DNA of 63,123 bases, counting the filler. It is 4 parts of 4 records of this genome, joined end to end, with 100 filler letters (N's around TTAATTAATTAA, not from the genome) between each part and the next. Parts side by side here need not be neighbours in the genome. Positions count along the whole stretch, not along the records: positions 30,059 to 57,581 come from SRR20825006_1294; 3 more parts are not named here. One strand, 5' to 3'. Position numbers and translations under genes: made by a program. Each line of letters starts with the position of its first letter. Within the stretch, counting starts at the first letter, position 1. Below the pieces are notes generated by a model. It was not told the origin of the DNA. It ran no database searches and was given only the letters and a program-made list of their open reading frames with translations. Shown here piece after piece: positions 30,059 to 47,559 of the stretch.

Positions 30059-30088
30059 GTGGGGGTTCAAGTCCCTCCACCCGCACCA
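30059..30088 (+). tRNA. 3' end of a tRNA (T-arm, acceptor strand, CCA); probably tRNA-Leu, 5' part outside the contig
   Basis: GGGGG-TTCAAGT-CCCTC T-arm followed by CACCCGCA-CCA; isotype inferred, anticodon not visible. Confidence 0.75.
30060..30088 (+). repeat. att core, left copy (TGGGGGTTCAAGTCCCTCCACCCGCACCA)
   Basis: Exact match to 47531-47559. Confidence 0.95.
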
Positions 30089-30178
30089 CCTTATCTCATT
30101 GAAATCAAATAAAACCCTTGATTATAAGGGGATTTTGCCATTTTGAAGCTACAAAGTTGACTACAAAATGGAAACGCT

Positions 30179-31753
30179 ATGGCTGGCAAGTTGAGATACT
30201 TTGTAGAAGTGAAGGGTCGCTATATCGCGCGGATTTCAGTTCCTGAAAGATTGCGTCCTATCATCGGCAAGACGATGATTCAGGAAGCATTGGGCGGTGA
30301 CTACCGGCAAGCGGTAAAATTTCATGCTGGTGCTGTGTCACGGTTACAGGCGCAAATTGCCGACGCAGAGCGAAAGCTGGCGCTGCAAACCGGTCGAGGT
30401 AGCGAGGTGATTGAGCCTTTTCCTCTGACGCCGCAACAAATCGCTCTTAGCCATTACACGCAACGCCTTGCCGTGGATGATATGCTTCGCAATAGCAGTC
30501 CGGGGTTTGCAATGGTCGGCTTTGACGATTCATTCGTCTTGCGTCTTCGCAATGCGATTGCTGGTCGCGCTTCTGATAGTGAGCTTTCCTATTTGGTTGG
30601 CTCTCAGGTTGAACGCTTTCGGGCGGTTGGCAATCTATCCGCAGAGATCGGAAGTGACGAATGGCGCGCGATCGCCCGTGCCCTGTGCAGCGCTGAGCTA
30701 GAGGCGATGGAGCGGGCCTATGAGCGCGACGAAGGCGATTTTAGCGGCACCCCTAGCGCACCAATCATTCGGGATGCACAGCCGCCGGAAGACGCGCCTA
30801 AGAAGGTGAAACTCTCAAAGCTGTGGACTGATTACATCAAGGGCCGGGTTCAAGCCGGTTTCATGCGCGATAACGGCAAACGTCTTAACTCTGTGCAAGA
30901 GAGTCTTCGCAAGTTTCTGAAACATGACGATGCAAGCCGGGTCACAAAGAAAGACCTTATTGCGTGGCGCGAACACCTTATGGAAAGCCTCTCCGCAAAG
31001 ACTGTGAATGACATTTACTTGTCGGCTGTCCGGTCACTGTTCGCGTGGGCAGCGGAAAACGACATACTTTCGGAGAATGTTGCTGCGTCTGTGCGTCAAC
31101 CCAAGCCGAGAAAAGTCTATGGCCGTGAGCGCGGATACACCGACGCCGAAGCTGTGAAGGTGCTGAAAGCCTCACGCGCCTATCAGTCCAAGGCGGATGA
31201 GTTTGGCAATGTTCGTGAAGGTGAGCAAACTGCAAATATGAAGCGATGGGTGCCTATTATTTGCGCTTTCTCTGGTGCGAGGGTGTCCGAGATTACGCAG
31301 CTTCGGAAAGAGGATGTGCGGAAAGAGGGCGAGGTGTGGGTGATGCGTATCACGCCGGACGCCGGGACTGTCAAAGCGGGTGGGTATCGTGACGTGCCAT
31401 TGCACCCTCAGATCGTCAAAGAGGGTTTCTTGACGTTCGTGGACGAAGCCGAGGATGGCCCGCTTTTTCACAACGCAACCGAGCCGGAGAAATTCAAACG
31501 GGCTGCGGAGATCGTTTCTAACAAGTTATCCGACTGGCTTCGCGAGAGTGGTTTGACGCCGAAGGGGTTGCAACCGAACCACGCATGGCGGCACCGGCTT
31601 AAAACGCAGTGCCGTGAGCTTGGTCTCTCTGACCGTGTGGCGGATGCAATTCAGGGCCATGCAGGGAGGACTGCGGGCGACAACTACGGTGATGTAACGC
31701 TTTTCACGAAAGCGAAGGCAATCAATCAACTGCCGGAATACGATCTGGGCTAG
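30179..31753 (+). CDS. int: Tyrosine recombinase/integrase with DUF6538-like N-terminus
   Basis: SGARVSEI (R), TVK (K), HAWRH, QGH, DNYG (Y); next to att. Confidence 0.92.
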   Translation: MAGKLRYFVEVKGRYIARISVPERLRPIIGKTMIQEALGGDYRQAVKFHAGAVSRLQAQIADAERKLALQTGRGSEVIEPFPLTPQQIALSHYTQRLAVDDMLRNSSPGFAMVGFDDSFVLRLRNAIAGRASDSELSYLVGSQVERFRAVGNLSAEIGSDEWRAIARALCSAELEAMERAYERDEGDFSGTPSAPIIRDAQPPEDAPKKVKLSKLWTDYIKGRVQAGFMRDNGKRLNSVQESLRKFLKHDDASRVTKKDLIAWREHLMESLSAKTVNDIYLSAVRSLFAWAAENDILSENVAASVRQPKPRKVYGRERGYTDAEAVKVLKASRAYQSKADEFGNVREGEQTANMKRWVPIICAFSGARVSEITQLRKEDVRKEGEVWVMRITPDAGTVKAGGYRDVPLHPQIVKEGFLTFVDEAEDGPLFHNATEPEKFKRAAEIVSNKLSDWLRESGLTPKGLQPNHAWRHRLKTQCRELGLSDRVADAIQGHAGRTAGDNYGDVTLFTKAKAINQLPEYDLG

Positions 31754-31775
31754 TTTTACATGTCTGTTGGGATGT

Positions 31776-32321
31776 TCAGAAGGTTATGGCTTTAGCCGTC
31801 ACAATTCCCCAATCTCGACAAGATTTTTGCCCTGATGTGATTTGGGCAGATTCACACCACGGCACCTGAAGGTTTGCTTCAGGCTCTATTTCGAATTTTG
31901 CGGAAGTTTCTACTGTTGAGTTTGGCGGGAGCCAAGTGTCGGCGGTCAAGAAATAGGAGTTCAGCTTTCCATTCTCGTCGTAGATTTCCACAATAAACGT
32001 AATTTCTGTAATAATTCGATCTTCGTTTTTATTCGTTACGTTTGCCTTAAGCCCTTCTTCGCTGAGGTATCCGTTTCCGTTAAGGTTGCTAGCCCCACTC
32101 ATCGGCCTTTGGTGTTCCGTGGTGCATATCAAGCGTAGTTGCTCCTTTTCGAGCAGCTCCGTCGCATTTGTATTCATGCAGGCTTCGACTCCTTTAATGC
32201 TGCCGTGATAAATTACCTCTTTAACGCTTTCCACAGGCTTGCATGCTGAGGCCATTGAGGCGGCTAGCAATGAAATCAAAAAGCGAATTTTTATGATTTT
32301 TTTTGTCACGATACTTTCCAA
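31776..32321 (-). CDS. Accessory lipoprotein (FxLYD-like C-terminal domain possible)
   Basis: Basic N-terminus, hydrophobic stretch, ASAC lipobox; AT-rich; opposite strand; start uncertain. Confidence 0.6.
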   Translation of the reverse strand: MESIVTKKIIKIRFLISLLAASMASACKPVESVKEVIYHGSIKGVEACMNTNATELLEKEQLRLICTTEHQRPMSGASNLNGNGYLSEEGLKANVTNKNEDRIITEITFIVEIYDENGKLNSYFLTADTWLPPNSTVETSAKFEIEPEANLQVPWCESAQITSGQKSCRDWGIVTAKAITF

Positions 32322-32454
32322 GAAAGTTTGAATTTCGGTTAAGCCTACTTAACTTGCACTTCATAGCAAGTCGAAACGGCAATGGTTATGTGCCGTTCGC
32401 GGGCGGCAAGCTAGGATATATTCAGTAAGATTATTTAAAAATAATATGAAGCGG

Positions 32455-32489
32455 GGATTCACATTCTGTTCTAATTGGGGTATTATAAT
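32455..32489 (+). promoter_or_regulatory. Putative promoter of the morphogenesis operon
   Basis: TTCACA-17bp-TATTAT within GGATTCACATTCT, a motif repeated at 45197. Confidence 0.55.
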
Positions 32490-32519
32490 ACCGTTATTTG
32501 GTTAAAGTGTTTTCAGTCC

Positions 32520-33707
32520 GTGTTTAAAAAAGTCTTTTCAGCATTTTCAAAGAAGGCGGTGGTCGTCTCGACGTCTGCCGCTTTCCCTATTTTCAATATT
32601 ACACCCTCAATCTCAGGTCAGACCGTCACGGCAGATTCTGCCATGCGCGTTCCTGCCGTGGCCTGTGCGGTTTCTTTGATCGCCGAAACGGTCGGTAGTT
32701 TGCCTGTAAAGCTCTATGAGCGTGAGGGCAGGGCGTCCGTTACTGATCATCCGGCATATAAGCTTATGCATGATGAGGCGAACCCGTGGACTTCTGCGCA
32801 GTCTCTTCGCGAGCAACTGACGACTGACGCGCTTTTGTTTGGTCGCGGCTGTGCTTTGGTGGTGCGCAATGGCGCTGGCGATCCTGTTGAGCTTCACCGC
32901 CTCGAACCCTCTGCCGTGAACATCGAAACCGATGACTACGGCGAACCCACTTACATTGTGCAACAGACTGGCGGGCCGCAGCGCTACAGCATTACAGACA
33001 TTTTGCACGTCGAAGCCTTTGGTGGGGTCTCACCGATCCTTCTCGGTCGCGAGGCTATCGGTCTTGCGCTCGCGTTTGAACGCCATATCGCGCGGCTCTT
33101 TGCAAACGGTGGCAAACCCGGTGGCATCCTTAAATCAGAGAAAGCCCTTGGTGACGAAGCCAAGCGCAACCTTGCCGCAAGCTGGACCGCCGCGCATGGC
33201 GCTGGCAATTCCGGTGGCACGGCCATTTTAGACGAAGGCATGGCTTATGAAGCGGTGACGATGACGCTAACTGATGCGCAGTTCGCCGAGAACCGCCTTG
33301 AACAAATTCGCGAGATTGCCCGCGTGTTCCGGGTGCCGCCGACCATGCTCTTTGAATTGACGCGGGGCACGTGGTCCAACACCGAAGAAATGGCGCGCCA
33401 GTTTTTACAGATCACGCTCAAACCATGGCTGACGAATTGGGCATGGGCCTATGCGCGTTGTCTTCTGTCACCGGATGAGCGCCGTGAGCTTTATGCGGAG
33501 TTCATCACCGACGATCTCACCACGACCGACACCGCCGCCCGTGCGACCGCTTACGGTCAATACCGTTCTATGGGCGTCATGACTGCCAATGAGGTGCGCG
33601 CCGGTCTCAACCTGACGCCTCACGCGAATGGCAATGATCTGCAAAACCCATACACGACAACCGGCGCAATTTCCGCGCCTCAGAAAGAAGCTATTTCCAA
33701 TGAATAA
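32520..33707 (+). CDS. HK97-family portal protein
   Basis: VACAVSLIAETVGSLP, LFANGGKPGGIL, EIARVFRVPP, MTANEVRAGLNL; start approximate. Confidence 0.93.
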   Translation: MFKKVFSAFSKKAVVVSTSAAFPIFNITPSISGQTVTADSAMRVPAVACAVSLIAETVGSLPVKLYEREGRASVTDHPAYKLMHDEANPWTSAQSLREQLTTDALLFGRGCALVVRNGAGDPVELHRLEPSAVNIETDDYGEPTYIVQQTGGPQRYSITDILHVEAFGGVSPILLGREAIGLALAFERHIARLFANGGKPGGILKSEKALGDEAKRNLAASWTAAHGAGNSGGTAILDEGMAYEAVTMTLTDAQFAENRLEQIREIARVFRVPPTMLFELTRGTWSNTEEMARQFLQITLKPWLTNWAWAYARCLLSPDERRELYAEFITDDLTTTDTAARATAYGQYRSMGVMTANEVRAGLNLTPHANGNDLQNPYTTTGAISAPQKEAISNE

Positions 33708-34074
33708 GATTACCCACACCGGCTTTTTCGGTGATCGCGAGCGCCGCTTTTGCCTGACCGATCCCATGCTTGCCGAGCTTGAACGTATCACCGGCCTCGG
33801 TGTCGGTGCGCTCTATTTCCAATTTGTGAACCTCGCCTATCCGGCCAATGTGCTCACTGATGTGATCCGCCTCGGTTTGATCGGTGGTGGTGCCGACCCC
33901 GAAGAGGCAAAGCGTCTTTGTGAGACCTATGCCGCAAACCGCCCGCTGTCCGAGGTCTTCCCTTTGGCGTTTGACGTCATGGAGGCGCGTTGGAGCGGTG
34001 TGGATGCGAAAGACGAAGGCACCGAAGCCGCCGCGTCTGGCGATCTGGGGGCTTCCCTGAGTGTTGCCGCATGA
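33700..34074 (+). CDS. GTA-gp10-like tail assembly chaperone
   Basis: FFGDRERRFCL...LAELE...VIRLGLIGGG motif of 'gene transfer agent family' chaperones. Confidence 0.7.
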   Translation: MNKITHTGFFGDRERRFCLTDPMLAELERITGLGVGALYFQFVNLAYPANVLTDVIRLGLIGGGADPEEAKRLCETYAANRPLSEVFPLAFDVMEARWSGVDAKDEGTEAAASGDLGASLSVAA

Positions 34075-35603
34075 CCGAACGCCTCGAAATCAAAGCCGAT
34101 CTGAGCGTCACGGACACGGGCGAAATCACCGGGATTGCATGGCCGTTCGGCACTGCCGACCGGGTGGGCGACGTGATCGAAAAGGGTGCATTCTCCGGCC
34201 CGAAAACCCTCCCCATGCTCTTTGCACACGATCAATCGCAGGTGGTGGGCGTGTGGCACGAAATGACGGAAACCGACGCGGGCCTGACCGTCAAGGGTCG
34301 CCTGTTGATTGATGACGTTGAACGCGCTCGCGAAGTGCGCGCGATGGTGAAATCTGGAGCAATATCAGGACTTTCCATCGGGTTTGTCACCAAGAACGCG
34401 AGGCGCATGAATAAGGGCCGCAGGATCACCGCCCTTGAGCTTCACGAAATTAGCATTGTTGCCGTTCCGGCTCATCCGGGCGCGCAGATCACCTCTTTAA
34501 AATCATCGAATTTGAATAAGGAACTTTACATGGAAAACGAAGAAATCGAAACCCACGCACCGGAAGCCAAAGCGGCACCGGCCAATGAGCCACAGAACGA
34601 CACCAAGGCATTTGATCGTGTGAGCGCGCGCCTTGACGCTCTGGAAGCCAAGCTTAACCGCCCGACCGGCGCACCGGCGATTGCTCTCGGAAAAGCACCT
34701 GAGCAAAAGGCGTTTGTCTCCTATCTGCAAGGCAATGACGGCGAGAAGAAATCGCTCACTGTTGCAAACGACAATCCAAACTATGTGCTCGCCCCCGAAG
34801 ACACGTCGAGCGAGTTCATTCGCAATCTTGTCGAATTCTCGCCGATCCGGTCCATCGCCGATGTGCGCACTACGGCCTCGCACACTGTGCTTTTGCCGAA
34901 ACGGACCTCTATCACGAACGCGTTGTGGGTTGGCGAAACCAACGCCCGCACCGGCAGCGAGCCGACCTTTGATCAAGGCGAGATCGCGGTGAAAGAGATC
35001 GCAACCTTTGTGGACCTATCACTTCAACTTGCCGAAGACAGTGCGAACGTGCTGAGCGAGGTCAATCTCGCGTTGTCCGAAGACTTCGGTCAGAAAGAAG
35101 CGTTGTCCTTTGTGAATGGCAGCACCGCGCTTGAACCTGCGGGCTTTATGCAAGACGCCGAGATCGTCACCACGGCCAACGGCCATGCGACAACCTTGGA
35201 CGCTGACGCTCTTATCGCGATGATGTATTCGCTCTCTGCGACCTACCGCAGCGCCGGGACGTTCGTCATGAATGGCAACACCCTCGCCACGATCCGCTCT
35301 TTGAAAGACGGCAATGGTAATTACCTGTGGCAACCGTCCTACCAAGCTGGGCAACCTGAAACGATCCTTGGCCGCCCGGTGGTCGAAGCTGTGGACATGC
35401 CGGACGTTGCAGACGGTGCCGAACCGATCATCTTTGGCGACTTCAAACGCGGCTACCGCATTTATGATCGCCTGTCGCTGGCGGTTATGGCCGATCCTTA
35501 CTCGGTGCGCACCACGGGTCTTATGCGCTACCATGCGCGCCGCCGTGTCGGTGCCGGTGTGGTGCGTCCGACCGCCTTCCGCAAATTGGTCATGGCTGCA
35601 TAA
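34071..35603 (+). CDS. HK97 prohead protease fused in frame to the major capsid protein (internal capsid start 34530)
   Basis: MLFAHD, GLSIGF, EISIVAVPA protease; WVGE, LKDGNGNYLWQP, ILGRPV, IFGDF capsid; AAGGA RBS before ATG 34530. Confidence 0.92.
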   Translation: MTERLEIKADLSVTDTGEITGIAWPFGTADRVGDVIEKGAFSGPKTLPMLFAHDQSQVVGVWHEMTETDAGLTVKGRLLIDDVERAREVRAMVKSGAISGLSIGFVTKNARRMNKGRRITALELHEISIVAVPAHPGAQITSLKSSNLNKELYMENEEIETHAPEAKAAPANEPQNDTKAFDRVSARLDALEAKLNRPTGAPAIALGKAPEQKAFVSYLQGNDGEKKSLTVANDNPNYVLAPEDTSSEFIRNLVEFSPIRSIADVRTTASHTVLLPKRTSITNALWVGETNARTGSEPTFDQGEIAVKEIATFVDLSLQLAEDSANVLSEVNLALSEDFGQKEALSFVNGSTALEPAGFMQDAEIVTTANGHATTLDADALIAMMYSLSATYRSAGTFVMNGNTLATIRSLKDGNGNYLWQPSYQAGQPETILGRPVVEAVDMPDVADGAEPIIFGDFKRGYRIYDRLSLAVMADPYSVRTTGLMRYHARRRVGAGVVRPTAFRKLVMAA

Positions 35604-35606
35604 GCC

Positions 35607-36242
35607 ATGACGCCGCTTGCCCGCTTGGAAGAGGTCACAGTGTGTCATGCTGGTCATGTCGTGACACTGAGACCGACCTTGCGGGCAGCGATGACCCTTG
35701 AGCGTTTGCATGGGGGCTGGTCGGGCTTGCTCCTTAAGTTCGACCAATTCCAACTGACAACTGTGCAAACGCTCATTCGAGCCTCAGCGGTGAGCCAGAA
35801 GGCCGCTGAGGCTCTTTTGTCCTCTTTGGAGGGCGAACCCCTCAAACAGATCAAAGCGACTCTGGAAGGGCCATGTGTGGCGCTCTTGAGCATGTTCCTG
35901 ACGTCGCCCGGCGAGGGTGAAGGGCAGGGCGCACAGACGGCAAAACAGACCGGCAAAGCGCTGTCATGGTCCGACGCCTATGCAGAGCTTTACCAGATCG
36001 GCACAGGCTGGCTTGGATGGACGCCGAAAGAGACATGGGCCACGACACCGACCGAAATCACCGAAGCCTTCACCGGCAAAATCGCAATGCTGAAAGCCAT
36101 TCACGGCAGCAAAGAGGAAGAACCCGCGCAATCCCAAACAGATTACACGCCCGAACGCCTCAAAGAGATCGACGCGCTTGGCTATGATCCGGCCTTTGAT
36201 CGGGGCAAGTTGCATGGCCTGAAAGCACGGCTCAATGCCTAA
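35607..36242 (+). CDS. Second tail assembly chaperone (G+T-like fused form)
   Basis: LRPTLRAAMTLE N-terminus and GWLGWTPKETWATTPTEI C-terminal motif. Confidence 0.6.
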   Translation: MTPLARLEEVTVCHAGHVVTLRPTLRAAMTLERLHGGWSGLLLKFDQFQLTTVQTLIRASAVSQKAAEALLSSLEGEPLKQIKATLEGPCVALLSMFLTSPGEGEGQGAQTAKQTGKALSWSDAYAELYQIGTGWLGWTPKETWATTPTEITEAFTGKIAMLKAIHGSKEEEPAQSQTDYTPERLKEIDALGYDPAFDRGKLHGLKARLNA

Positions 36243-36576
36243 GCCGCCGCACGTCTGTTCCTGTGGTCGTGTTGTGCCGCATGGCGAACGCTGTGCCTGC
36301 CAGATCGCCCGCGCCCGTGCCCGAAACAAGCGCCACGATGCGAACAGGCCTACAGCCGCTATACGCGGGTATAACCACACATGGCGCAAAGCCCGCCTAG
36401 AGTTTTTGAGCTACCACCCGGTTTGCGTTCGCTGCGGCGCTCTGGCGACCGTTGTGGACCACATCACGCCGCACCGGGGTGACGATAAGCTGTTTTGGGA
36501 TAGGAGCAACTGGCAGGCGCTGTGCAAACCGTGTCATGATCGGTGGAAGCAGGGGGAAGAGCGCGCCCATGTCTGA
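36235..36576 (+). CDS. HNH endonuclease (terminase-associated, HK97 gp74-like)
   Basis: CVRC...VVDHITPHRGD...NWQALCKPCH. Confidence 0.9.
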   Translation: MPKPPHVCSCGRVVPHGERCACQIARARARNKRHDANRPTAAIRGYNHTWRKARLEFLSYHPVCVRCGALATVVDHITPHRGDDKLFWDRSNWQALCKPCHDRWKQGEERAHV

Positions 36577-37276
36577 GCGCGATCTTTGGGTCTCGGTTCT
36601 TCTTACCGCTGTGGAAGACGCGACAATCGGCATCGGTGGCGAAAGTGGTTCCTCGCGACAAACAAAGCTGCGCATGATCAAAGAGGCCCGCACGTTCCTG
36701 ACGAAATCAAGTGAAGACTTGCAAATCGTCTGTGATGGCGCGGGCCTCAATATGGTGCAAGTTGTCGAACACATGCGCAAACGGATCGCGGATGCGCCAC
36801 CGCCAAGCGAACTTATCCAAGGTGTGCAGAAACGGAAGTCAGCGATCAACGCGCGCGAGCGTGATCGTAAAGAGAAACGGCCTATACCGACCTATACGCA
36901 CAACGGCGAAACCCTGACACTCTCGGAATGGTCTGAGCGCACCGGCCTTAGGGTGAGCACTATTCAGGGGCGTTTTAGCCGTGGGTGGTCGATTGCACGG
37001 GCATTGTCTGTGAGCACACAAGAGGCGCAGCAACAGGCGCGGGAAGAGGTGCAAGGACGTGCGCGTCATCAAGCGTCCAAGAAGACATGGCGGCGTGGCA
37101 GTGCGCCGCTGATGATTACCCACAAAGGCGAGACATTGACCGTCAAAGAGTGGTCGGTTCGAACAGGTATCAACGCCGGAACGATCAAGACGCGCCTTAG
37201 AAAAGGAATGCCGATGGGTAAGGTGCTGACGGTGGGTGATTTGCGTGGAGTGCAACGCGCGATGTTATTGGAATAA
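36569..37276 (+). CDS. Putative DNA-binding protein with two THxGETLTxxEWSxRTG repeats
   Basis: LWVSVLLTAVEDA..VCDGAGL N-domain plus a duplicated HTH-like module. Confidence 0.55.
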   Translation: MSERDLWVSVLLTAVEDATIGIGGESGSSRQTKLRMIKEARTFLTKSSEDLQIVCDGAGLNMVQVVEHMRKRIADAPPPSELIQGVQKRKSAINARERDRKEKRPIPTYTHNGETLTLSEWSERTGLRVSTIQGRFSRGWSIARALSVSTQEAQQQAREEVQGRARHQASKKTWRRGSAPLMITHKGETLTVKEWSVRTGINAGTIKTRLRKGMPMGKVLTVGDLRGVQRAMLLE

Positions 37277-37329
37277 ATTGACTAGTTTGGATATCATCTA
37301 TAGCACTCTCACGACTGTAGGAGATAATC

Positions 37330-37644
37330 ATGACGAAAGATCAAAATCCTGAACACTTCGATCCGGCTGCGCTCGAAGTGAAAGATGACGGATCGGCGGT
37401 CACCACTTTTGTTGATGGAATCCATGGTTTGAGCATGCTTGACGGTTTCGTGGTGTTTAACCTAACGAGAACAACAGTTCCGGCGCCATCGAAAGGAAAA
37501 GCAAGAGAGCCCTATGTAGAAGTTGTTGAGCGGCTTGCCATTCCTGCAAACTCTTTTGGTAGGATTGCGCATTTTATCTGGAATAATTTAAAGTTGATGG
37601 AAGAACACGGTGTGTTGGAGCCGGATGAGGGTGAAAATGGCTGA
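37330..37644 (+). CDS. Hypothetical accessory protein (DUF3467-like pattern)
   Basis: GGAG RBS; FVDG..VVFNL..VERLAIP pattern; AT-richer than flanking genes. Confidence 0.55.
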   Translation: MTKDQNPEHFDPAALEVKDDGSAVTTFVDGIHGLSMLDGFVVFNLTRTTVPAPSKGKAREPYVEVVERLAIPANSFGRIAHFIWNNLKLMEEHGVLEPDEGENG

Positions 37645-38230: not shown

Positions 38231-38291
38231 CCATATCATTCGTTTGTGATATATCAATATTATTGATGCATTGTTTCCGAGTGATTTTTTT

Positions 38292-38576: not shown

Positions 38577-38577
38577 C

Positions 38578-39472: not shown

Positions 39473-39474
39473 CC

Positions 39475-40181: not shown

Positions 40182-40184
40182 CCC

Positions 40185-41798
40185 ATGAGCACGAAGAGCA
40201 CCTATCCGGCATGGGTGATGGACAATTCTCCTATTCCTGATCCGATGGGCTTTGGTGAGCGGGCGGTGAAATTCTTGCGCCGCCTCAAACATCCGGCAAG
40301 CACGGCACCAAAACGAGCGTTTCAACTTGCGCCGTGGCAAGAGCGGATCGTGCGGCGCATTTACGGCCCGCGCAATGCGGACGGGTCGCGGATCGTCAAA
40401 CAGGTGTTTTTGATGATCCCGCGCGGCAACCGCAAAACCTCACTGGCGGCGGCATTGGCGCTTTTGCACCTTCTCGGACCTGAGAAAGTCCCGGCGGGTC
40501 AAATCATCTTTGCCGCCTCAGACCGTGAACAAGCGGGCATTGGGTTCCGGGAAGCCGCCGAGATCGTGCGCCAAGACAAACGTCTTGAGGGCGTGACCAA
40601 GATTTATGATGCGCACAACGCACCGAAGACGATCAAGAGCGCTTTGGATGGGTCTTCGCTCAAATCGGTGTCCTCGGACGGGCGCGCGCAGCACGGCACC
40701 ACACCGACCTTTGTGCTTGCGGATGAAATCCACACATGGCGCGGCAATGACCTCTGGGAAGCATTGCAATCGGGCATGGCAAAGCGGTCGGGTGGTTTGA
40801 CGGTGATTGCCACCACGGCAGGGCGCGGTAATGAGGGGCTTGCCGCAGATACTTACAACTATGCGCGCGGTGTTGCCCTCGGTCAGATTGAAAACGAAGA
40901 GTTCTTGCCAATCTTGTTTGAACCGGATGCGGGCGACCAATGGGATGATGAGGCGGTTTGGCAGCGGGTGAACCCCGGCCTCGCCTATGGCTTTCCTGAT
41001 CTGGACGGGCTGCGGTCGCTGGCGAAAAAAGCCAAGGACAGTCCAAGCGAGCGCTACAGCTTTGAGCAATACAACTTGAACCGATGGTTTGCGAATAGCC
41101 GTGATCCGCTCTTTGATTTTGCCACCTATGACGCGCGTCAGTTCGAAGAGGATGAAACCGATCTTGAAAGCTTGCCGTGCTGGCTTGGTGTGGACCTGTC
41201 GCGCTCTGGCGACCTGACCGCCGTTGTTGCGGCCTTTCAACATCCTGACGGACAGGTGACGGTGAGGCCCACCTTTTTTGTGCCCGGTGAAGACCTGAAA
41301 GCGCGCGCGGATCGCGACGGGGTGCCCTATGAGGATTGGGCCGATCAAGGTTTGATCCGCCTGTGTCCCGGTCCGATCATTTCTGAGGACGCTGTCGAAG
41401 AAGAAATTCGAGAACTGTGCGCCACCTATGACGTGTGCGAGATCGGCTTTGATCCGCACCTTGCGCAACGGATCATGCAGCGGCTCTACGATGATAGGTT
41501 GCCAGTGGTGGAAGTGCGGCAAGGCCCGTTGACGATGGGTGCCGCCGGGGCCGATCTTGAGCGGATCGTGAACGGCAAACTCATTCGCCATGATGGGCAC
41601 CCGATCTTGCGGCACCACCTCGCTTCTGTGGTGGCGGTGCGCACCGATAGCGGGCTGGTTAAGCTACACAAAGGTAAGAAAACCGACCGCATTGACGGGG
41701 CGGTGGCAACGGCCATGGCGGTCTATCGCCTGACCCTCGGGCAATCGAATTTGAGCGCGTATAACGATCCGTCTGCGGGCGGGCTTTTTGTATTTTAA
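40185..41798 (+). CDS. terL: Terminase large subunit
   Basis: LAPWQ, IPRGNRKT Walker A, VLADEIH Walker B, TTAG, GVDLS, RIDGAVA. Confidence 0.95.
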   Translation: MSTKSTYPAWVMDNSPIPDPMGFGERAVKFLRRLKHPASTAPKRAFQLAPWQERIVRRIYGPRNADGSRIVKQVFLMIPRGNRKTSLAAALALLHLLGPEKVPAGQIIFAASDREQAGIGFREAAEIVRQDKRLEGVTKIYDAHNAPKTIKSALDGSSLKSVSSDGRAQHGTTPTFVLADEIHTWRGNDLWEALQSGMAKRSGGLTVIATTAGRGNEGLAADTYNYARGVALGQIENEEFLPILFEPDAGDQWDDEAVWQRVNPGLAYGFPDLDGLRSLAKKAKDSPSERYSFEQYNLNRWFANSRDPLFDFATYDARQFEEDETDLESLPCWLGVDLSRSGDLTAVVAAFQHPDGQVTVRPTFFVPGEDLKARADRDGVPYEDWADQGLIRLCPGPIISEDAVEEEIRELCATYDVCEIGFDPHLAQRIMQRLYDDRLPVVEVRQGPLTMGAAGADLERIVNGKLIRHDGHPILRHHLASVVAVRTDSGLVKLHKGKKTDRIDGAVATAMAVYRLTLGQSNLSAYNDPSAGGLFVF

Positions 41799-41814
41799 CA
41801 GTGAGATTTGAGTA

Positions 41815-43806
41815 ATGAGTAACGAACTGCAAGGCTTGGTGGTCCCAATTGAGGGCCGTATCGACAAGCTTGAAAAGGCGCTTTCGAAGGCGAACAAGGC
41901 ACAGGCAAAGTTTGCCCGTGATGCGCAAAACCGCGCGCAACGCACCTCAAAGGGGATGAACACCGCTTACGGTAAAGTGAACTTCCCCACGGCCAAACTG
42001 ACCGCTGGTGTGGCGCTGATCACAGGCGCAGCGGCAACCGCGATTGCGCAAACCCGCGTTCTTGCGCGTGAGGTGGCAAGCGTGGGCAATGAGGCACGGC
42101 GCGCCGGTGTCTCCGCCGAGGACTTCCAAATCTGGGGCTATGTCGCCGAGCAAAACCGCATTCCGGTTGACGCCTTGGTTGATGGTCTCAAAGAGTTGAA
42201 CTTGCGGGCCGACGAATTTGTCATGACCGGCAAGGGGAGCGGGGCCGATGCCTTTGCGCGTCTCGGATACAGTGCCAAAGACCTCGCGACGAAACTCAAA
42301 GACCCGTCTGCGCTGATGTCCGAAATCCTCGAACGCCTCGAACAGATGGACAAGGCCGCACAAATTCGGATCGCCGATGAACTGTTCGGCGGCACCGGCG
42401 GCGAACGATTTGTCGAACTTTTGGGGCAGGGTGCGCGCAAGATCGAAGAGACCAAGCGTGAGGCCGTGAGCCTCGGGGTGGTCATGAGTGACGACCTGAT
42501 CAAAAAGGCCGAAATCCTCGACCGGCAATTCACAACCGTTGCGAACACGGTCGGCGTGACGCTCAAGAGCGCGATCATTAGCGCGGCTTATTCGCTCTCG
42601 GAATTCCTCGACGGGTTTAGGGCGTTCGAGCAACAGCGCACTGCCACACTGGAAAGCCGACAATCTGAGATCATGGCGGAAAAGGCGGGCCTCTATGCGA
42701 CCAACAAAGAGCAAAGCACTTGGTCAGATCGCAAGCGCCAACGCACCGGCATCGCCGCCGATGTGATTGCGGAACGCATTGCCGCTTTGGACGCCGAAGA
42801 GAACAAAATCATCGCCATTCTGAGCCAACGCAACACCCCGGCTTGGTCGCCCTCGGGTGATACCTGGACACCACCTGAGACACCGCCGGAGACGCCCGGA
42901 GCGGGCGGCACAGGCACGGGAGCGAGTGGCAGTGGTGCGAGGTCGCAAGACGACTATGAGCGCACGGTGGCGGCGCTAGAACGCGAGCGCGCGGCCTTGG
43001 AAGCGGAAGCCTCTGCGATGCAACAGGCGGCAACTCAGGCGTGGGGCCACGGCGATGCAATCGAATACGCCCGCACACGGGCGCAGCTTCTGGCAGCGGC
43101 ACAGGCAGAAGGCCGTGCGATCACGCCGGAACTGACTGCCGAGATTGATCGGCTTGCGAAAAGCTACGTCACGGCGGGCTTGAACGCAGAACAGGCGGCG
43201 AAGAAACTTGAACAGGTCGAAGGTGCCGGTCAACGGGGCGCAGAGGCTTTGAGCACCATGTTCGGCGATGTGTTCAGCGGCGCGAAATCTGCCGAGCAAG
43301 CGGTTCTTGATCTTTTGTCGCAACTTGCACAGGCGGCAATGAATGATTTGCTGATGCAATTGTTCTCAGGGGCTTTAGGTGGCGTGTCGTCTGTGATTGG
43401 TGGTTTGTTGCCGTTTGCGAGCGGTGGATACACCGGCGACGGTGGCACGTTCGAGCCGAAGGGTGTCGTGCATGGCGGCGAATACGTCTTGAGCAAACGC
43501 GCAACCGAACGCCTTGGGGTCTCAAGCTTGGATGCGTTGCACAAGAGCGCCTTGCGTGGCTATGCCTCTGGTGGGTTTGTCGGTGCCGCGAAAGCAAGCG
43601 GGCTTTCTGAGACAAGGACAAGCGCCGCGTCTACACCCTCGGTTACGATCAATTCACCGATCACGGTGAACGCGCCGGGTGGATCGCCGGAACAAAACGC
43701 CGATCTCGCCAAACAGATTGCGCGTGAGGCCGAGAACGGCATGAGGGCGCTTGTTCATACTGAGATCGGCAAGATGATGCGTCCCGGTGGGGCGTTGCGG
43801 CGGTAA
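41815..43806 (+). CDS. Tail tape measure protein
   Basis: Ala-rich helical protein; C-terminal FASGGYTGDGG..GVVHGGEYV and RGYASGG lambda-like motifs. Confidence 0.85.
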   Translation: MSNELQGLVVPIEGRIDKLEKALSKANKAQAKFARDAQNRAQRTSKGMNTAYGKVNFPTAKLTAGVALITGAAATAIAQTRVLAREVASVGNEARRAGVSAEDFQIWGYVAEQNRIPVDALVDGLKELNLRADEFVMTGKGSGADAFARLGYSAKDLATKLKDPSALMSEILERLEQMDKAAQIRIADELFGGTGGERFVELLGQGARKIEETKREAVSLGVVMSDDLIKKAEILDRQFTTVANTVGVTLKSAIISAAYSLSEFLDGFRAFEQQRTATLESRQSEIMAEKAGLYATNKEQSTWSDRKRQRTGIAADVIAERIAALDAEENKIIAILSQRNTPAWSPSGDTWTPPETPPETPGAGGTGTGASGSGARSQDDYERTVAALERERAALEAEASAMQQAATQAWGHGDAIEYARTRAQLLAAAQAEGRAITPELTAEIDRLAKSYVTAGLNAEQAAKKLEQVEGAGQRGAEALSTMFGDVFSGAKSAEQAVLDLLSQLAQAAMNDLLMQLFSGALGGVSSVIGGLLPFASGGYTGDGGTFEPKGVVHGGEYVLSKRATERLGVSSLDALHKSALRGYASGGFVGAAKASGLSETRTSAASTPSVTINSPITVNAPGGSPEQNADLAKQIAREAENGMRALVHTEIGKMMRPGGALRR

Positions 43807-44146
43807 TTGGCATGATTTTGAAAAACGCGCTGTAAGGCACCTTAGAGCGCCGTTGGTGGTTTTTGGGAGGATGTGTAGCCAAAAAGAGGCAAAAGGTATC
43901 TGATGACTCTCTGTGAGGCTGCTTTGTAGTGATTTTGCGATGTGGGGTTGTATGTTCCGTCTGGCGGGCGCATATTCGGTGCGTAACCCCGCAGGGACAC
44001 CGCACCCACTAGCACCCGTCCGCCGCAAGGCAAGCAGCAAGCAAGCACAGTCCAAAGGGTTTAAGGCAGGTCTTATCCTGTGCCGAACGCAAAACACGTT
44101 CGTAGTCTCACCCCCTTTATAACGAACTGCTGCGGACACCCTATCT

Positions 44147-45139
44147 ATGCTTACTGCTTACGAACTCGACCTTCTCATTTTACTGAATGAAGCACCCGAC
44201 GCTAGTGATCTCGAACCTGTCACTCGTGGAACATCGCCTGATCCTGTTTGCAGCGAGGAAGACCTTGCAGACCTGATTGCTCACCTTGACGAATTGGCGG
44301 CAAACGAAGCGGGGAAAATTGATTCCAAACGCTTTCCGGTTCAGGACGTTCAAGTCCAAGGAAACAAGGGACAAAACGCAGATGCGGGAAATCCCGGTCA
44401 GTGTGTAATTCACCCCCTTCCACATCCCCACAAAGCATCCCCTCTATCCCCTACACATCCTCACGCCTTCACACCTTCCCCATGCCCTGCAAACGCTCCT
44501 GAGCAACCCAAGACAAGGAAGCCTAGAGGAAAGCTCGCGCGGATCGCCGAAGTGGAAGGTATGGTGAAAAACGGCATGAGATGGAATGGGAAGTGCAAGG
44601 ATGATCCGAAAGCGATTGGTGAGGTTGGCAAATTCTCTGTAGCTGTTGCCTCTGTGGAAGCCGTGGGTGGTCATGCATTCTCGCTCAATCTCGGATCGCG
44701 GCGTGAAGATATGCTTCTTTCTCATTCTGATCCGCGTCGGCGTATGTCTGCAAATCTGAATAAGCGTCTCAAGGAAGCTGGCTTTCCCGGTCTTCCTTAC
44801 GCGTTTGCTTTTGATGTCGAGCCGAATTCAGATCGTGTTCATCTTCATGGCGTGATTGATACGCGTGGGCTTTCTTCTGACGATATGAAACGCCTTAATC
44901 ATGCTCTTCGCCGTGCCGGTTCTGAAGCAACTGGTGCTCTCGGTGGTGAGCGTCAGGTGAAGTTGAAAGATGTAAACTCTGCGGGTGGTTGGGTAGATTA
45001 CACGTTGCGGGCGCACAGACGCACAGAGAAGGTGCTTGGCGTCGAAAACGTGGTGTTCATCAGCACAACGATGAACCGGCTTTCTAAGGGGCATTATGAG
45101 GCCCTTAGAGGTGAGCGTATTGCCGGAAAACGGGTGTGA
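44147..45139 (+). CDS. HUH endonuclease, rolling-circle Rep-like
   Basis: Ordered motifs AFSLNL (I), VHLHGVI (II, HUH), GWVDYTLR (III, Tyr). Confidence 0.65.
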   Translation: MLTAYELDLLILLNEAPDASDLEPVTRGTSPDPVCSEEDLADLIAHLDELAANEAGKIDSKRFPVQDVQVQGNKGQNADAGNPGQCVIHPLPHPHKASPLSPTHPHAFTPSPCPANAPEQPKTRKPRGKLARIAEVEGMVKNGMRWNGKCKDDPKAIGEVGKFSVAVASVEAVGGHAFSLNLGSRREDMLLSHSDPRRRMSANLNKRLKEAGFPGLPYAFAFDVEPNSDRVHLHGVIDTRGLSSDDMKRLNHALRRAGSEATGALGGERQVKLKDVNSAGGWVDYTLRAHRRTEKVLGVENVVFISTTMNRLSKGHYEALRGERIAGKRV

Positions 45140-45196
45140 ATTTTGGGGATAAGTAAGCGCTAACTTATGAGAAATAAACAGAAAAACGCATTTTCT

Positions 45197-45228
45197 GGAT
45201 TCACATTCTCTGTCCGGTTCGGTATGGT
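45197..45228 (+). promoter_or_regulatory. Putative promoter, paralogous to 32455
   Basis: GGATTCACATTCT; TTCACA-17bp-TATGGT. Confidence 0.55.
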
Positions 45229-45234
45229 GTTCGT

Positions 45235-45301
45235 GTTGGACGTAGCAGTCAACGAATGGCTGGTGAGGGCGTAGGGGTGCGCGCCTCACCAGCGCTTCCA
45301 A
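45235..45301 (+). ncRNA. Candidate structured RNA or leader
   Basis: Outer TTGGA/TCCAA and AGC/GCT pairing enclosing a GCTGGTGAGG/CCTCACCAGC stem; starts at the predicted TSS. Confidence 0.4.
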
Positions 45302-45344
45302 GGCGTTAGTAGTTGTCCCGAATGTCATATAGGAAAAAGAAACA

Positions 45345-45719
45345 ATGAGTATTAATAAACCGACCGAGCTTGAGAGGCTCCAAGCCCGCATGCGTGAGCA
45401 TCGAGAAGGGTCTAATGCGCTTTATCAGACGATGAAACGGCGGGATGATTTTAAGCCGCTCACGTTAGTTTTCGACGATGTCGAAGGCACATTGGCTGAG
45501 GTGTCGATTGACGCAGTTTCCGGTGAGCAAGCCGCTACTGCAAAGCAAAACGTTAAGAATACATACCTGCCGGATGACACTTGGAAAGCCCTCTCTGCGG
45601 CTCTGGTCGAGGCGTCCGAAAATCCTGCAGACCCTCAGACCGAGATTGAGATTGTGCTCGCTGAATTCAACATCATGCCGGAACATTGTCGCGAGGATTG
45701 CGAGGTTTTGGGGGCGTAG
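45345..45719 (+). CDS. Hypothetical protein
   Basis: 124-aa ORF with AGGA upstream. Confidence 0.6.
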   Translation: MSINKPTELERLQARMREHREGSNALYQTMKRRDDFKPLTLVFDDVEGTLAEVSIDAVSGEQAATAKQNVKNTYLPDDTWKALSAALVEASENPADPQTEIEIVLAEFNIMPEHCREDCEVLGA

Positions 45720-45797
45720 TAATTTTTTGCATTTACCTCTTGCAAAATGGTAACGGGTTAGTTAGTTACTGAATACCGAAAGCAAGGAGTTCCTACG

Positions 45798-46322
45798 ATG
45801 GCACTTACACCGGCAGAAAAGCAGCGTGCATATCGTGAGCGGCAAAAGAAGAAAAAAAAGGCTGCATTGAAGAATGCAGAAGAAGCGCCGCAGGAGGTCT
45901 TTCGGACGCCGTTTTTTGAGTTCTTGGGCGACTTCTGTTGGAGTGGTTCGGATTACAATGTCGCGCTTGATCTTGCTGGCATTTCGCCGCCGCAGTTCGA
46001 TGATGATCGTGGCCCAGAAGCTTACACGCTGGATGATGGTGCTGAGGCGGCTGGAATTTTTAAAGACGCGGAAGGCTCGCTTGGACGTGCTGAGGTTATG
46101 GTCGGCTGTTTGATCACCGCAGCGGTCGATATGGCTCACCAGATCAACGATTACAAACGCACAGAGATCAAAGCGCGTCTTGCTGAAATTGAAGCCGCTG
46201 ACCTTTCGGTCCCCGAGACAAGAAAGGCCGCGCTGAAAGATGTGGCGCGCCTGAATAAAATGCTGGACCAGCTTGATAAGCAGGTTCGCTGGACTTTCCC
46301 ACAGTGGAAGGTGACGGGCTGA
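45798..46322 (+). CDS. Hypothetical protein with basic N-terminal helix (possible DNA binding)
   Basis: MALTPAEKQRAYRERQKK; AAGGAG RBS. Confidence 0.7.
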   Translation: MALTPAEKQRAYRERQKKKKKAALKNAEEAPQEVFRTPFFEFLGDFCWSGSDYNVALDLAGISPPQFDDDRGPEAYTLDDGAEAAGIFKDAEGSLGRAEVMVGCLITAAVDMAHQINDYKRTEIKARLAEIEAADLSVPETRKAALKDVARLNKMLDQLDKQVRWTFPQWKVTG

Positions 46323-46421
46323 AAAGCCTTTAAGTTGCGGCGTGGCCCCGGTCGCCAAACTGAAACCACGCCGCTCATTTCAACGCCCTTGATAGGGCAT
46401 CTATACAAAGGAGACATTAAC

Positions 46422-46628
46422 ATGTCTTACACACCCAAAGCAATTCTTACCGAAGCCGAACTTTATGAACCCACTTCGGAAGACTGGAATATTGTGGATA
46501 CATTGTGGGATCGCTTGCAGACGATGAAACCGGGCAAGCAGCGTTCTATCGTGACTAGCTTGATTTCAGCGTGTCCCGTGAGCATTCAAGCCGCGCGGAA
46601 TATTCTGGCTGACGAGGGGCTTGTGTGA
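46422..46628 (+). CDS. Small hypothetical protein
   Basis: AAGGAG RBS; stop overlaps the next start (GTGA). Confidence 0.6.
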   Translation: MSYTPKAILTEAELYEPTSEDWNIVDTLWDRLQTMKPGKQRSIVTSLISACPVSIQAARNILADEGLV

Positions 46629-47203
46629 TGCTCGCAGTAATGAACCAACCGAATTGGCTGCAAATTGAAGAGATGAAAAACTGTGTTCACGAAGCGGGTC
46701 ATGCTGTCATCGCGCGTCTGACCGGCTTTGATGTCGCATGGGTCTCCGTTGATCCAAACTTTATCAAAAATGACCCTCTGGCGATTGAGAATGGATGTAA
46801 CCTTAGCCATGCTGTTTGTCTCACGATTTCTTCTGATCGACTGAACCCCATTATCAATCGCCGGTCTGAACTGACGAAGGAGCAGAAGGAGACAATTATG
46901 GGCTACTCTATGCATGTGCTTGCCGGCCCTTGCGCAGAGGAGCGCATGAGCCCTGAGACTTTCTATGTTGAGGCGAGTGAGAATGATCTTGCACAGGTCG
47001 CTGCTGTTCTCATGCTTACCACACGGACCAATAAAGCAATGTGCAAGAAGCTGCATCGCACCGCACGGCGCAAGCTTGAAAAGATGCTGGAAGAGAATTG
47101 GGGGCTGGTCGTCTGTGTTGCCGACGCGCTCCAGAGGTATCGGACTCTCTCTGGGGCGGGGTTGGATCAGCTTATTGCTGGTGATCTCGCAGAAGCCGCC
47201 TAA
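46625..47203 (+). CDS. Stand-alone HEXXH metalloprotease domain (FtsH/M41-like)
   Basis: VHEAGHAVIA, LAGPCAEE, ASENDL, VADAL...TLSG. Confidence 0.7.
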   Translation: MMLAVMNQPNWLQIEEMKNCVHEAGHAVIARLTGFDVAWVSVDPNFIKNDPLAIENGCNLSHAVCLTISSDRLNPIINRRSELTKEQKETIMGYSMHVLAGPCAEERMSPETFYVEASENDLAQVAAVLMLTTRTNKAMCKKLHRTARRKLEKMLEENWGLVVCVADALQRYRTLSGAGLDQLIAGDLAEAA

Positions 47204-47395
47204 TCCCATGCGACACTCTCGGGTGTCCGCTGTAGAACCAAACAGGTCTGGCACCACCTTGCGCTCACCAGAAGGCGCTAACGGTGCTGCGATTAGTCGG
47301 TGAGTGCGCGGGCCATATTCTCAAACCCCGACATGGCACAGCGGGTTCTCCTTAACTTGCCGCGTGGTGCCAAGATACGATTACCAGTCGTCACG

Positions 47396-47428
47396 GGCGA
47401 GGCTCTTCGGGGTCTCGCCTTTCTCTTT
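47396..47428 (+). terminator. Intrinsic terminator at the element's right end
   Basis: GGCGAGGCTC-TTCG-GGGTCTCGCC followed by TTTCTCTTT. Confidence 0.75.
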
Positions 47429-47530
47429 GCCCATAGTTGACGCAACGTCATGAACTACAAAATGAGCACCACTATAGAGCTACAATGAAATTTATAAGCA
47501 ATTGAAACAAAACAATAAAAAGTGCAAATC

Positions 47531-47559
47531 TGGGGGTTCAAGTCCCTCCACCCGCACCA
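47531..47559 (+). repeat. att core, right copy
   Basis: Exact 29-bp duplicate of 30060-30088. Confidence 0.95.

Follow-up and report, generated by a model that had tools for sequence, protein, structure and literature searches.

A predicted capsid-forming satellite with its own tape measure protein, integrated at a tRNA-Leu gene of an alphaproteobacterium

What kind of mobile element carries genes for a phage head, a neck and part of a tail within 17.5 kb, and ends on both sides in a tRNA-derived repeat? The question is raised by positions 30060–47559 of a stretch of alphaproteobacterial DNA of 63,123 nucleotides, filler included (the window). We propose, with a probability of roughly 0.6, that this element is a satellite which forms capsids, depends on a helper and assembles chimeric tails. 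Its gene content, its integration site, its conservation across a family, and purifying selection on its genes are observed; its excision, packaging and mode of replication, its dependence on a helper and its chimeric tails are what we infer. Below, loci and genomes that need to be told apart carry L and G numbers.

Gene content

The 22 open reading frames (ORFs) of the element were scanned with Pfam and PHROGs, and those left unexplained also with NCBIfam and PADLOC. From left to right, the features are:

30060–30088, + strand: attL, a 29-bp repeat identical to the 3' end of tRNA-Leu(TAG)
30179–31753, + strand: tyrosine integrase, 524 aa, with a DUF6538 N-terminal domain (phrog_1, E 1.6e-30)
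31776–32321, − strand: 181-aa ORF with a lipoprotein-like signal peptide, no family match
32475–33707, + strand: portal protein (PF04860, E 1.3e-96; phrog_12)
33700–34074 (open from 33628), + strand: tail assembly chaperone (TAC)-like protein of the gene transfer agent (GTA)-gp10 type (PF11836, E 4e-23)
34071–35603, + strand: fused prohead protease and HK97-type major capsid protein (PF04586, PF05065, phrog_10, phrog_80, phrog_617)
35607–36242, + strand: 211-aa protein with a Phage_TAC_6-like segment (phrog_7493)
36235–36576, + strand: HNH endonuclease of the packaging-associated type (PF01844; phrog_2323, E 7e-28)
36569–37276, + strand: DNA-binding protein, 235 aa, with two repeated helix-turn-helix (HTH) units (phrog_3377 in two stretches, weak phrog_575)
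37330–38149, + strand: variable module of a 104-aa and a 179-aa ORF, no family match
38271–38576, + strand: head-tail adaptor Ad1, gp6-like (PF05135, phrog_40)
38479–39057, + strand: Neck1 or tail-completion protein, HK97 gp10-like (PF04883; phrog_5, E 5e-20)
39008–39472, + strand: tail terminator or tail completion protein, gp17-like (PF11367, E 2e-14; phrog_176)
39460–39789, + strand: head closure protein Hc1 (PF05521, phrog_25)
39786–40181, + strand: small terminase, TerS (PF05119, phrog_83)
40185–41798, + strand: large terminase, TerL (PF03354, PF20441; phrog_9, E 8e-130)
41815–43806, + strand: tape measure protein (TMP), 663 aa (phrog_10574 over its whole length, E 4e-141; PF10145)
44147–45139, + strand: HUH-type Rep-like protein, 330 aa, assigned by motifs and fold matches
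45345–47203, + strand: right-arm ORFs of 124, 174, 97 and 192 aa, no family match
47531–47559, + strand: attR, the second 29-bp copy, then the flank that directly follows the tRNA in the empty site

From the portal gene to the HTH-protein gene, and again from Ad1 to the TMP gene, successive genes overlap or lie end to end. The initial annotation of this DNA, made from the letters alone, had described uninterrupted and mostly coupled ORFs for head and packaging proteins, and these are indeed found as a mostly overlapping or abutting series from portal to TerL. The head and packaging genes that it named also stand, but it had left unnamed the TMP (41815–43806), the two TAC-like genes, the terminator and Neck1. 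The integrase, which it had called intact, is a 524-aa tyrosine integrase with a phrog_1 match; the Pfam Phage_integrase match lies under the gathering cut-off, and the protein is 68% identical to its copy in L003, a locus whose TerL is 92% identical to that of the window. Judged from these assignments, the element is predicted to encode everything needed to build and fill a small HK97-type head of its own. Its neck gene set (adaptor, head closure, Neck1, terminator) is likewise complete.

The remainder of a phage is missing. Specifically, Pfam, PHROGs, NCBIfam and PADLOC give no match to a tail tube, distal tail (Dit), Tal/tip, fibre, holin or endolysin protein among the 22 ORFs, and none to an AlpA/CI/Cro or MerR/Stl regulator, a primase or a helicase. 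The first inspection, which had recognized no tail tube, tip, receptor-binding protein, lysis, AlpA/CI or primase–helicase gene, is thus corroborated, and searches by profile hidden Markov model (HMM) and by fold uncover no concealed gene for a tail tube, a tip or lysis. NCBIfam returned 0 matches to the ten ORFs left without an explanation; PADLOC returned just one short, weak match, in the HTH protein, and the ESM Atlas placed the 174-aa protein in unnamed clusters only. Because the element holds no such genes, tail tube, tip and lysis functions are most likely borrowed from a helper phage.

Two of its proteins look like chaperones of tail assembly. An AlphaFold2 (AF2) model of the PF11836 protein, built from 14 sequences (pLDDT 83.8), shows a beta-hairpin followed by five helices. 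The named matches of this model in BFVD are seven tail assembly or tape-measure chaperones and two proteins labelled tail tube protein; Foldseek finds no match in the PDB at E ≤0.001. The helical build of the model and the predominance of chaperones among its named structural matches lead us to read the protein as tail assembly chaperone-like. The Pfam description of PF11836 and the PHROG label of phrog_8985 call it a "tail tube protein", a designation that we reject on the same two grounds. Separately, locus L039 encodes, at 8705–9385, a second protein with a PF11836/phrog_8985-like C-terminal domain besides the one that follows the portal; it lies directly upstream of the TMP gene, the canonical chaperone position. 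Regarding the 211-aa protein, 10 of 13 family members match PF09550 (Phage_TAC_6), with a best E of 8e-6, and its profile draws 243 clusters (50% identity) at E ≤1e-30 from 1.84 billion representatives. Sequence searches of the PDB with the TAC-like protein, the 211-aa protein (single sequence and profile) and the terminator gave no meaningful match.

Integration site

The perfect 29-bp repeats reported at the outset are present at 30060–30088 and 47531–47559, and they are the sole long exact repeat spanning the region. By our own arithmetic, the chance expectation of an exact 29-mer repeat in 22 kb is ~1e-9. The further claim that these repeats lie at a tRNA 3' end finds no tRNA in the window to rest on, where ARAGORN detects 0 tRNA genes and Rfam 0 matches at gathering thresholds; the tRNA body is absent because the contig starts at 30059. 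Genome G001 supplies it. This is the nearest genome compared, with 40% of sampled 31-mers common with the window, and its single copy of the 29-mer is the 3' end of an intact tRNA-Leu(TAG). Directly after that tRNA comes the sequence found in the window from 47560 onward, and the rest of the 17.5 kb is absent. The tRNA-Leu(TAG) of G001 is therefore an empty attB, since the tRNA is intact and the right flank is the same, with no element between them. From this comparison of sequences, the element is placed as an insertion, made by a tyrosine integrase, in the 3' end of tRNA-Leu(TAG).

Another contig of the source run (X1, record 2) matches the repeat at 30059–30094 except for 2 differences, after which the sequences part. 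A further tRNA-Leu gene whose 3' end is similar is the probable explanation.

A conserved family of elements

The same gene set in the same order between att repeats, which the initial annotation had suggested looking for, does exist elsewhere, in Rhodobacterales and Hyphomicrobiales; among the genomes scanned, the family was found only in these two orders. A pattern scan with TerL, one genome per species, gave seven loci. Five of the seven share the order integrase, portal, TAC, protease-capsid, 211-aa protein, HNH, HTH protein, Ad1, Neck1, terminator, Hc1, TerS, TerL, TMP; of the other two, one is cut by a contig end and one is truncated inside TerL. The five syntenic loci belong to Celeribacter neptunius (TerL 92% identical), a Cypionkella metagenome-assembled genome (70%) and three rhizobia (63–64%), namely Mesorhizobium cantuariense, M. 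huakuii and Rhizobium sp. SG_E_25_P2. A single Rhizobium genome (G004) holds two members in the same order, L007 (TerL 63%) at tRNA-Ser and L010 (44%) at tRNA-Gln. The Pseudothioclava arenosa copy (L008/L040) stops within TerL, at about residue 198, directly beside tRNA-Gln, and G424:C23:141025-141609 is probably likewise truncated in TerL beside tRNA-Gln. These two copies are decayed family members.

Larger samples agree. Among 17 IMG/VR loci, nine show the full portal-to-TMP order, five are consistent fragments and three lack a TMP match; because some are the same DNA as genome loci (L026/L003, L035/L007, L040/L008), the entries are partly non-independent. None of the 17 contigs has direct terminal repeats. 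In the host family, 12 of 401 sampled genomes have a TerL match at E ≤1e-100. Ten loci were examined there (G531 and G424 excluded), and nine of them (TerL 46–84%) keep the same order through TMP; the tenth (TerL 41%) is without neck and TMP matches. Across the class, TerL matches at E ≤1e-40 occur in 14 of 401 sampled genomes, and 0 of 12 loci examined are of the window type (W-type). The 211-aa protein is present in W-type loci with TerL identity of ~44% or above; tblastn finds no match to it in five more distant W-type loci (L053–L056, L058).

Ten copies, the window's included, are bounded by direct repeats that contain a tRNA 3' end and measure 16,811–18,303 bp. They occupy ten different tRNA genes: Leu(TAG), two Gln, Ser, Val, two Thr, Cys, Leu(CAG) and Arg. 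That the sizes vary so little suggests a limit set by what the capsid can hold. For the window against the Celeribacter copy, the ratio of nonsynonymous to synonymous substitution rates (dN/dS) is 0.06 for TerL, 0.08 for the capsid, 0.09 for the portal, 0.10 for HNH, 0.14 for the terminator, 0.15 for TMP, 0.18 for Hc1, 0.18 for the integrase and 0.24 for the 211-aa protein. By this measure, the nine tested genes are under purifying selection. The TMP gene adjoins TerL throughout the family and encodes 661–899 aa; in the M. cantuariense copy it is split into two ORFs. Beyond TMP the elements have just 3.5–5 kb, which differs from copy to copy. Among eight right-arm ORFs of relatives that were HMM-scanned, AIPR, AbiU2 or a weak HEPN/RES match was found in three relatives.

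Given the recurring order, the ten tRNA sites, the narrow size and the low dN/dS, we regard these elements as a conserved family and not as decayed prophages. That the element is no decayed prophage had already been put forward from the window alone, and this view gains from the finding that relatives with TerL 46–92% identical are 16.8–18.3-kb elements at other tRNA genes under purifying selection. Full prophages of 35–50 kb, the finding named in advance as fatal to that view, did not appear among these relatives.

Just past the TMP gene, L003 (13940–14052) and L009 (14920–15028) each carry three closely spaced direct repeats of 17–21 nt with an iteron-like look, which may mark an origin or an operator. 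The right arm of the window has no clear iterons.

Phylogeny and distant relatives

In a TerL tree, the window falls in a 15-row clade (support 100/100) composed of 12 W-type loci and three on contigs too short to classify. Two W-type loci, L010 and L039, interleave with a smaller type inside a 22-row clade (100/99). Of six prophages of normal order (TerL then portal), five form a separate clade and one, L018, joins L017 and L019. Rooting is at the midpoint, and several branches are long.

The smaller sister type (L014–L017, L019, L038, L057) has portal, protease-capsid, HNH, TerS and TerL beside an integrase and a tRNA. In L014–L017, L019 and L038, TerL is 37–52% identical to that of the window, and tblastn finds no match to Neck1, terminator, TAC or TMP; in L057, too, it gives none for Neck1, terminator or TMP. 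A PHROGs scan of two of them showed a helicase and an adaptor in L014, a weak DnaD-like loader in L038 and phrog_5707 in both. By these genes, L014 and L038 look more like classical phage-inducible chromosomal islands of the capsid-forming kind (cf-PICIs).

L015 is bounded by repeats 16,287 bp apart. L020 (G375:C3:147300-167299; TerL 31%), a distant relative, keeps the same permuted order; its TerL gene is followed immediately by that of a 1214-aa tape measure of the TMP_3 type and, farther along, by a weak terminator-like ORF. It may be either a larger element or a prophage.

Known phages are remote. A comparison of TerL with 50,697 phage records gave 2,712 matches, all under 60% identity, and the 15 best are at 32–33%. 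For TMP, no phage record covers 80%; the best match is the TMP of Sinorhizobium phage phi2LM21, with 51% identity over 38%.

The Rep-like protein

The 330-aa protein encoded past TMP has nine detectable homologues in an index of 5.8 billion proteins. In an alignment of the window protein with eight homologues, H232 and H234 (H-x-H) and Y285 (in a Y-x-x-K/R context) are invariant in all nine sequences. The AF2 model is confident only over about residues 130–330, a folded domain. The top PDB match by Foldseek is the adeno-associated virus (AAV) Rep nuclease (E 9.6e-4, probability 1.0, TM 0.25 normalized to the query and 0.38 to the target). A VIA fold search lists SIRV1 ORF119 (Z 6.4), NS1 of minute virus of mice (MVM; 5.9) and B19 NS1, AAV5 Rep and RepB (5.2–5.4), all below the trust level of 8. 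RepB of pMV158, parvovirus NS1 and nanovirus and circovirus Reps are among the fold matches at Z 4.5–6.4.

Taken as a pair, the motifs and the enrichment of Rep-type folds make an HUH initiator the best reading, and we assign this function to the modelled protein with moderate confidence. The HUH Rep called in the initial annotation is thus modestly supported overall: the histidine and tyrosine motifs hold in nine of nine sequences, but the fold match is weak.

Proposed life cycle and possible helpers

How might such an element spread? Upon induction or helper infection, it would be excised by its integrase, perhaps with aid from the HTH protein. Copying would probably proceed by rolling-circle replication started by the HUH Rep-like protein. 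The resulting concatemers would be cut and packaged by HNH, TerS and TerL, in a cos-type manner and in unit lengths, into capsids of the element's own making. To become infectious, these capsids would rely on a helper siphophage for tube, tip and lysis. The TMP, chaperones and terminator of the element would go into a chimeric tail matched to the neck that the element supplies. Tail assembly is probably reprogrammed by the element in a cell where the tube and tip genes of a helper are expressed too, since terminator, Neck1, chaperones and TMP all act on the tail side. HK97 has a T=7 capsid and a 39.7-kb genome, and scaling of the volume by (4/7)^1.5 gives ~17 kb for a T=4 capsid.

A hint of a helper comes from one host. 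The genome of M. cantuariense contains, besides its element, a prophage (L048) with genes for a major tail protein, a Neck1-like protein, a 642-aa TMP, a distal tail protein, a tail protein, an 878-aa fibre and further fibre-like proteins. From major tail protein to last fibre, this stretch is ~10.8 kb. The N-terminal half of the TMP of the element is 68.7% identical over 316 aa to the L048 TMP in the same genome; the portal and capsid proteins of the two are 25–28% identical, or 25–30% with Neck1 counted in. A mosaic TMP of this kind would be expected if a satellite and the tail of its helper had undergone exchange or been forced into compatibility; it is seen in this single case.

Several points weigh against the proposed satellite. 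We find no helper candidate for the host of the window, G001 being without a match to the TMP of the element. No circular junction appears in the assembled contigs examined, a kind of sequence that would not reveal one. Rolling-circle copying leans on a Rep assignment made from motifs and weak fold scores (Foldseek E ~1e-3, VIA Z ≤6.4), and VIA itself places Z ≤6.4 within the range of common arrangements. Homologues of the Rep-like protein, 26–30% identical by tblastn, turn up in the right arms of L006, L032, L034, L039 and L051 only. Synteny in relatives was judged by tblastn, and the HMM scan there covered eight right-arm ORFs only. Finally, eight ORFs of the element have no family match, and functions encoded there may go unrecognized.

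Alternative explanations

Could the tail-side proteins serve as weapons instead of parts? TMP, chaperone-like proteins and terminator could be decoys that poison the tails of invading phages, while tail-less capsids pick up free tails. There are precedents for both halves of this idea: cf-PICIs are described as releasing tail-less capsids and pirating free tails (10.1101/2025.02.11.637232), and satellites as interfering with tail assembly, Rta being one example (PMC12987554). Abi-type genes in the right arms of relatives would also suit a role in conflict. Yet TMP is kept at full length (661–899 aa) beside TerL with dN/dS 0.15, and the terminator at 0.14; a full neck with Neck1 and terminator suits structural use; and the TMP of a PLE satellite is described as structural (PMC12987554). 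We consider decoys unlikely.

Nor do we think it at all probable that the element is a very small autonomous temperate siphophage whose tube, tip and lysis genes hide among the unmatched ORFs. Eight such ORFs exist, and the 179-aa one has a hydrophobic segment, as do some holins. Essential tail parts should be conserved, however, and these ORFs are not: those of 104 and 179 aa are absent from L003 (TerL 92%) and replaced in sequencing run X4, and right arms vary. The conserved core, from integrase to TMP, holds no candidate for tube, tip or lysis, and the 3.5–5 kb past TMP compares with a tail stretch of ~10.8 kb in L048.

The helper might not be a phage. Specifically, the Rhodobacter capsulatus-type GTA (RcGTA) of the host could supply tube, baseplate and lysis. 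The structural families of the element (PF04860, PF04586, PF05065, PF05135, PF05521, PF11367, PF11836 and PF09550) are also those of RcGTA. A GTA-type distal-tail gene (PF09343) occurs in all five genomes tested, and in three of the five, G001 included, a tube gene (PF06199) adjoins a PF11836 gene, as in the GTA cluster; the PF06199 matches in the five genomes all lie outside the element loci. That the family was found only in Rhodobacterales and Hyphomicrobiales also fits. Still, the proteins of the element resemble those of the resident GTA no more than they resemble those of any phage, and C. neptunius, host of the closest relative, has a GTA cluster without a tube. In that cluster (L059, G002:C5:512000-531999), the stretch from the C-terminal half of the capsid gene to g10.1 is missing, tail tube included; its TerL, portal, protease and distal genes are 71–83% identical to those of the G001 cluster, L043. 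On balance, a GTA as helper is very improbable.

We give even less credence to a family-wide form of this idea, in which the elements parasitize GTAs by adding a bigger head and a longer TMP, a terminase that is sequence-specific, a neck and chaperones, and by taking tube, baseplate and lysis. If true, a domesticated device for random DNA transfer would have been turned back into the vehicle of a selfish element. The GTA was also considered as a close relative of the element and rejected as such: proteins of the two are 27–45% identical (portal 27%, capsid 31%), and several have no match at all, since tblastn with the TAC, terminator and head closure proteins of the element finds nothing in the resident GTA.

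Least probable of all is the remnant of a prophage that lost its tail and lysis modules by deletion. In its favour, the gene content looks like a phage without its distal half, and decay does occur (L008/L040 and probably G424, both truncated inside TerL). Against it, a compact architecture with integrase and att recurs in two orders, at ten tRNA genes and with sizes that span 1.5 kb; none of the relatives whose TerL is at least 46% identical is a full-size prophage; nine tested genes have dN/dS ≤0.24; and the element's genes (portal...TerL-TMP) stand in a permuted order when set against normal prophages, whose place in the tree is outside the clade.

Relation to known systems

Capsid-forming satellites are already known in the form of cf-PICIs (Alqurainy et al. 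2023; described in PMC10085698 and in 10.1101/2025.02.11.637232). They share with the present element a size of ~14–18 kb and genes for integrase, HNH, TerS, TerL, portal, protease, capsid and adaptor/connector, and according to PMC10085698 a fused protease-capsid also occurs in the cf-PICIs of Firmicutes. Tail tube and lysis genes are absent from both. Variable accessory regions, expected to hold immunity genes, are a further likeness (10.1101/2025.02.11.637232). The cf-PICI model of SatelliteFinder, as presented in PMC10085698, treats tail profiles as "forbidden" and has five of eleven components in common with PICIs. Of the features in that model, the element has integrase, HNH, TerS, TerL, portal, protease-capsid, adaptor (PF05135) and connector (PF05521); it lacks an AlpA/MerR/Stl regulator, a primase-replicase and a holin match, and it does have tail genes. 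Because of the regulator, the primase-replicase and the tail genes, we do not file it as a strict cf-PICI. In place of a primase-replicase, of which none was found, it has an HUH Rep-like gene; it adds TMP, two TAC-like genes, terminator and Neck1; its gene order is permuted (portal...capsid...neck...TerS-TerL-TMP); and its hosts are Alphaproteobacteria, which receive 0 mentions in the main text of PMC10085698.

Satellites that own a tape measure are also on record. The PLE satellites of Vibrio cholerae are described as replacing the TMP and TAC of their helper with their own in tail assembly (PMC12987554), and satellite-encoded TMP and TAC are thus common to them and to the element. The PLEs as there described use helper capsid proteins, a myovirus helper and a serine recombinase, and some have a baseplate hub; in contrast, head, neck and terminator are the element's own, a hub is absent, and no sequence relationship links the two. 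By analogy with the two systems, the element most likely functions as cf-PICIs do, with the addition of a tail takeover like that of PLEs. In the same paper (Nature 2026), the legend of Extended Data Fig. 10b mentions a sampling of cf-PICIs that carry putative tmp genes. These match the element in concept, and at the level of a figure legend, overlap with the family described here is possible. The tape measure receives 0 mentions in the tail-piracy preprint (10.1101/2025.02.11.637232), and the EPIP preprint (PMC12822802) states that TMPs are not known in satellites apart from PLE11. The EPIPs of Mycolicibacterium are likewise small satellites with TerS, adaptor, stopper, capsid protein and TMP, and their particles have tails that differ in length from those of the helper (PMC12822802). 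They differ from the element in a serine integrase, in the absence of TerL and portal from the genes listed, in an actinobacterial host and in having been isolated as particles (PMC12822802).

RcGTA resembles the element in its head, neck and chaperone Pfam families and in its host range. GTAs are not known to have an integrase or att site; they sit at a fixed chromosomal locus, pass vertically from cell to cell line, carry genes for a tube and baseplate of their own, and fill their particles with random pieces of host DNA. The element, unlike RcGTA, is site-specifically integrated by means of integrase and att, and the site is empty in G001.

The "distinct satellite class" proposed in the initial annotation is hence not upheld: cf-PICIs, the TMP and TAC of PLEs and cf-PICIs with putative tmp genes are all described in the sources above. 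With capsid-forming satellites and satellite TMPs already in print, we speak of a new lineage or variant and of no new category. The literature hits seen describe no alphaproteobacterial capsid-forming satellite; one of the searches behind them was loosely framed and is a weak test. If our reading holds, the family is a large, seemingly undescribed lineage of capsid-forming satellites in marine Rhodobacterales and soil and rhizobial Hyphomicrobiales. Its set of own parts is the most complete among the satellites compared, with head, full neck, terminator, chaperones and TMP, which leaves tube, tip and lysis to steal. Chimeric-tail assembly, so far demonstrated for PLEs only, would extend to siphovirus-type tails and to capsid-forming satellites. 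By its stated rules, the SatelliteFinder cf-PICI model would miss such elements, because it forbids tail genes. With this family, the benefit that a satellite draws from a tail ruler of its own becomes a tractable question. Finally, the Abi-type genes in the variable right arms point to a possible part in defending ecologically important hosts against phages.

Accessory genes and genomic surroundings

The 181-aa reverse-strand ORF was not seen in the seven genome-scan loci compared, and is probably cargo. In the 235-aa protein the HTH repeats are visible in the translation; judged from its sequence, this protein is possibly a Cox-like regulator or an excisionase. Of the variable module, which is not conserved in L003, the 179-aa ORF has one hydrophobic segment. 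In the copy of run X4, 36577–38184 (HTH C-terminus, 104-aa and 179-aa ORFs) is swapped for 1379 other letters. The 174-aa right-arm protein recurs in relatives, and the 192-aa one has an HExxH motif; the right-arm ORFs likely serve regulation or are cargo.

The window is four contigs in series (1–17259, 17360–29958, 30059–57581 and 57682–63123). Each of the three joints (17260–17359, 29959–30058 and 57582–57681) consists of 44 N, a 12-nt linker with stops in all frames and 44 N. As the contigs are concatenated, neighbourhood across a joint is no evidence of linkage. The element lies at the very start of the third contig (30059), and attL is without a left flank in the window. A 43,860-nt Logan contig from the probable source run matches 30059–49000 with 0 differences and extends beyond 30059, which makes that point an assembly break at the repeat and no true end.

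GC content is ~0.60 in the flanks and lower, 0.51–0.53, in both arms of the element. On the same contig, the flanking genes encode RTX/Hint-domain proteins, a membrane transporter and DNA polymerase III delta', and neighbouring contigs carry Mfd and others; by their predicted products, these look like ordinary chromosomal genes. The fraction of element k-mers present is 0.82–1.00 in sequencing runs of five organism labels, one of them the probable source, and 0.26–0.43 in marine and lake metagenomes.

To the right of the element, 47666–50197 (− strand) and 50532–52367 (+ strand) encode two large proteins with RTX calcium-binding repeats and a C-terminal Hint domain. Within 48439–48900, repeat contigs of several sequencing runs break or rearrange. 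At 27929–29958 (+ strand) lies a 676-aa ORF of 69-nt (23-aa) repeats, cut by the contig end and with no Pfam match, which is probably the cause of the assembly break at 29958.

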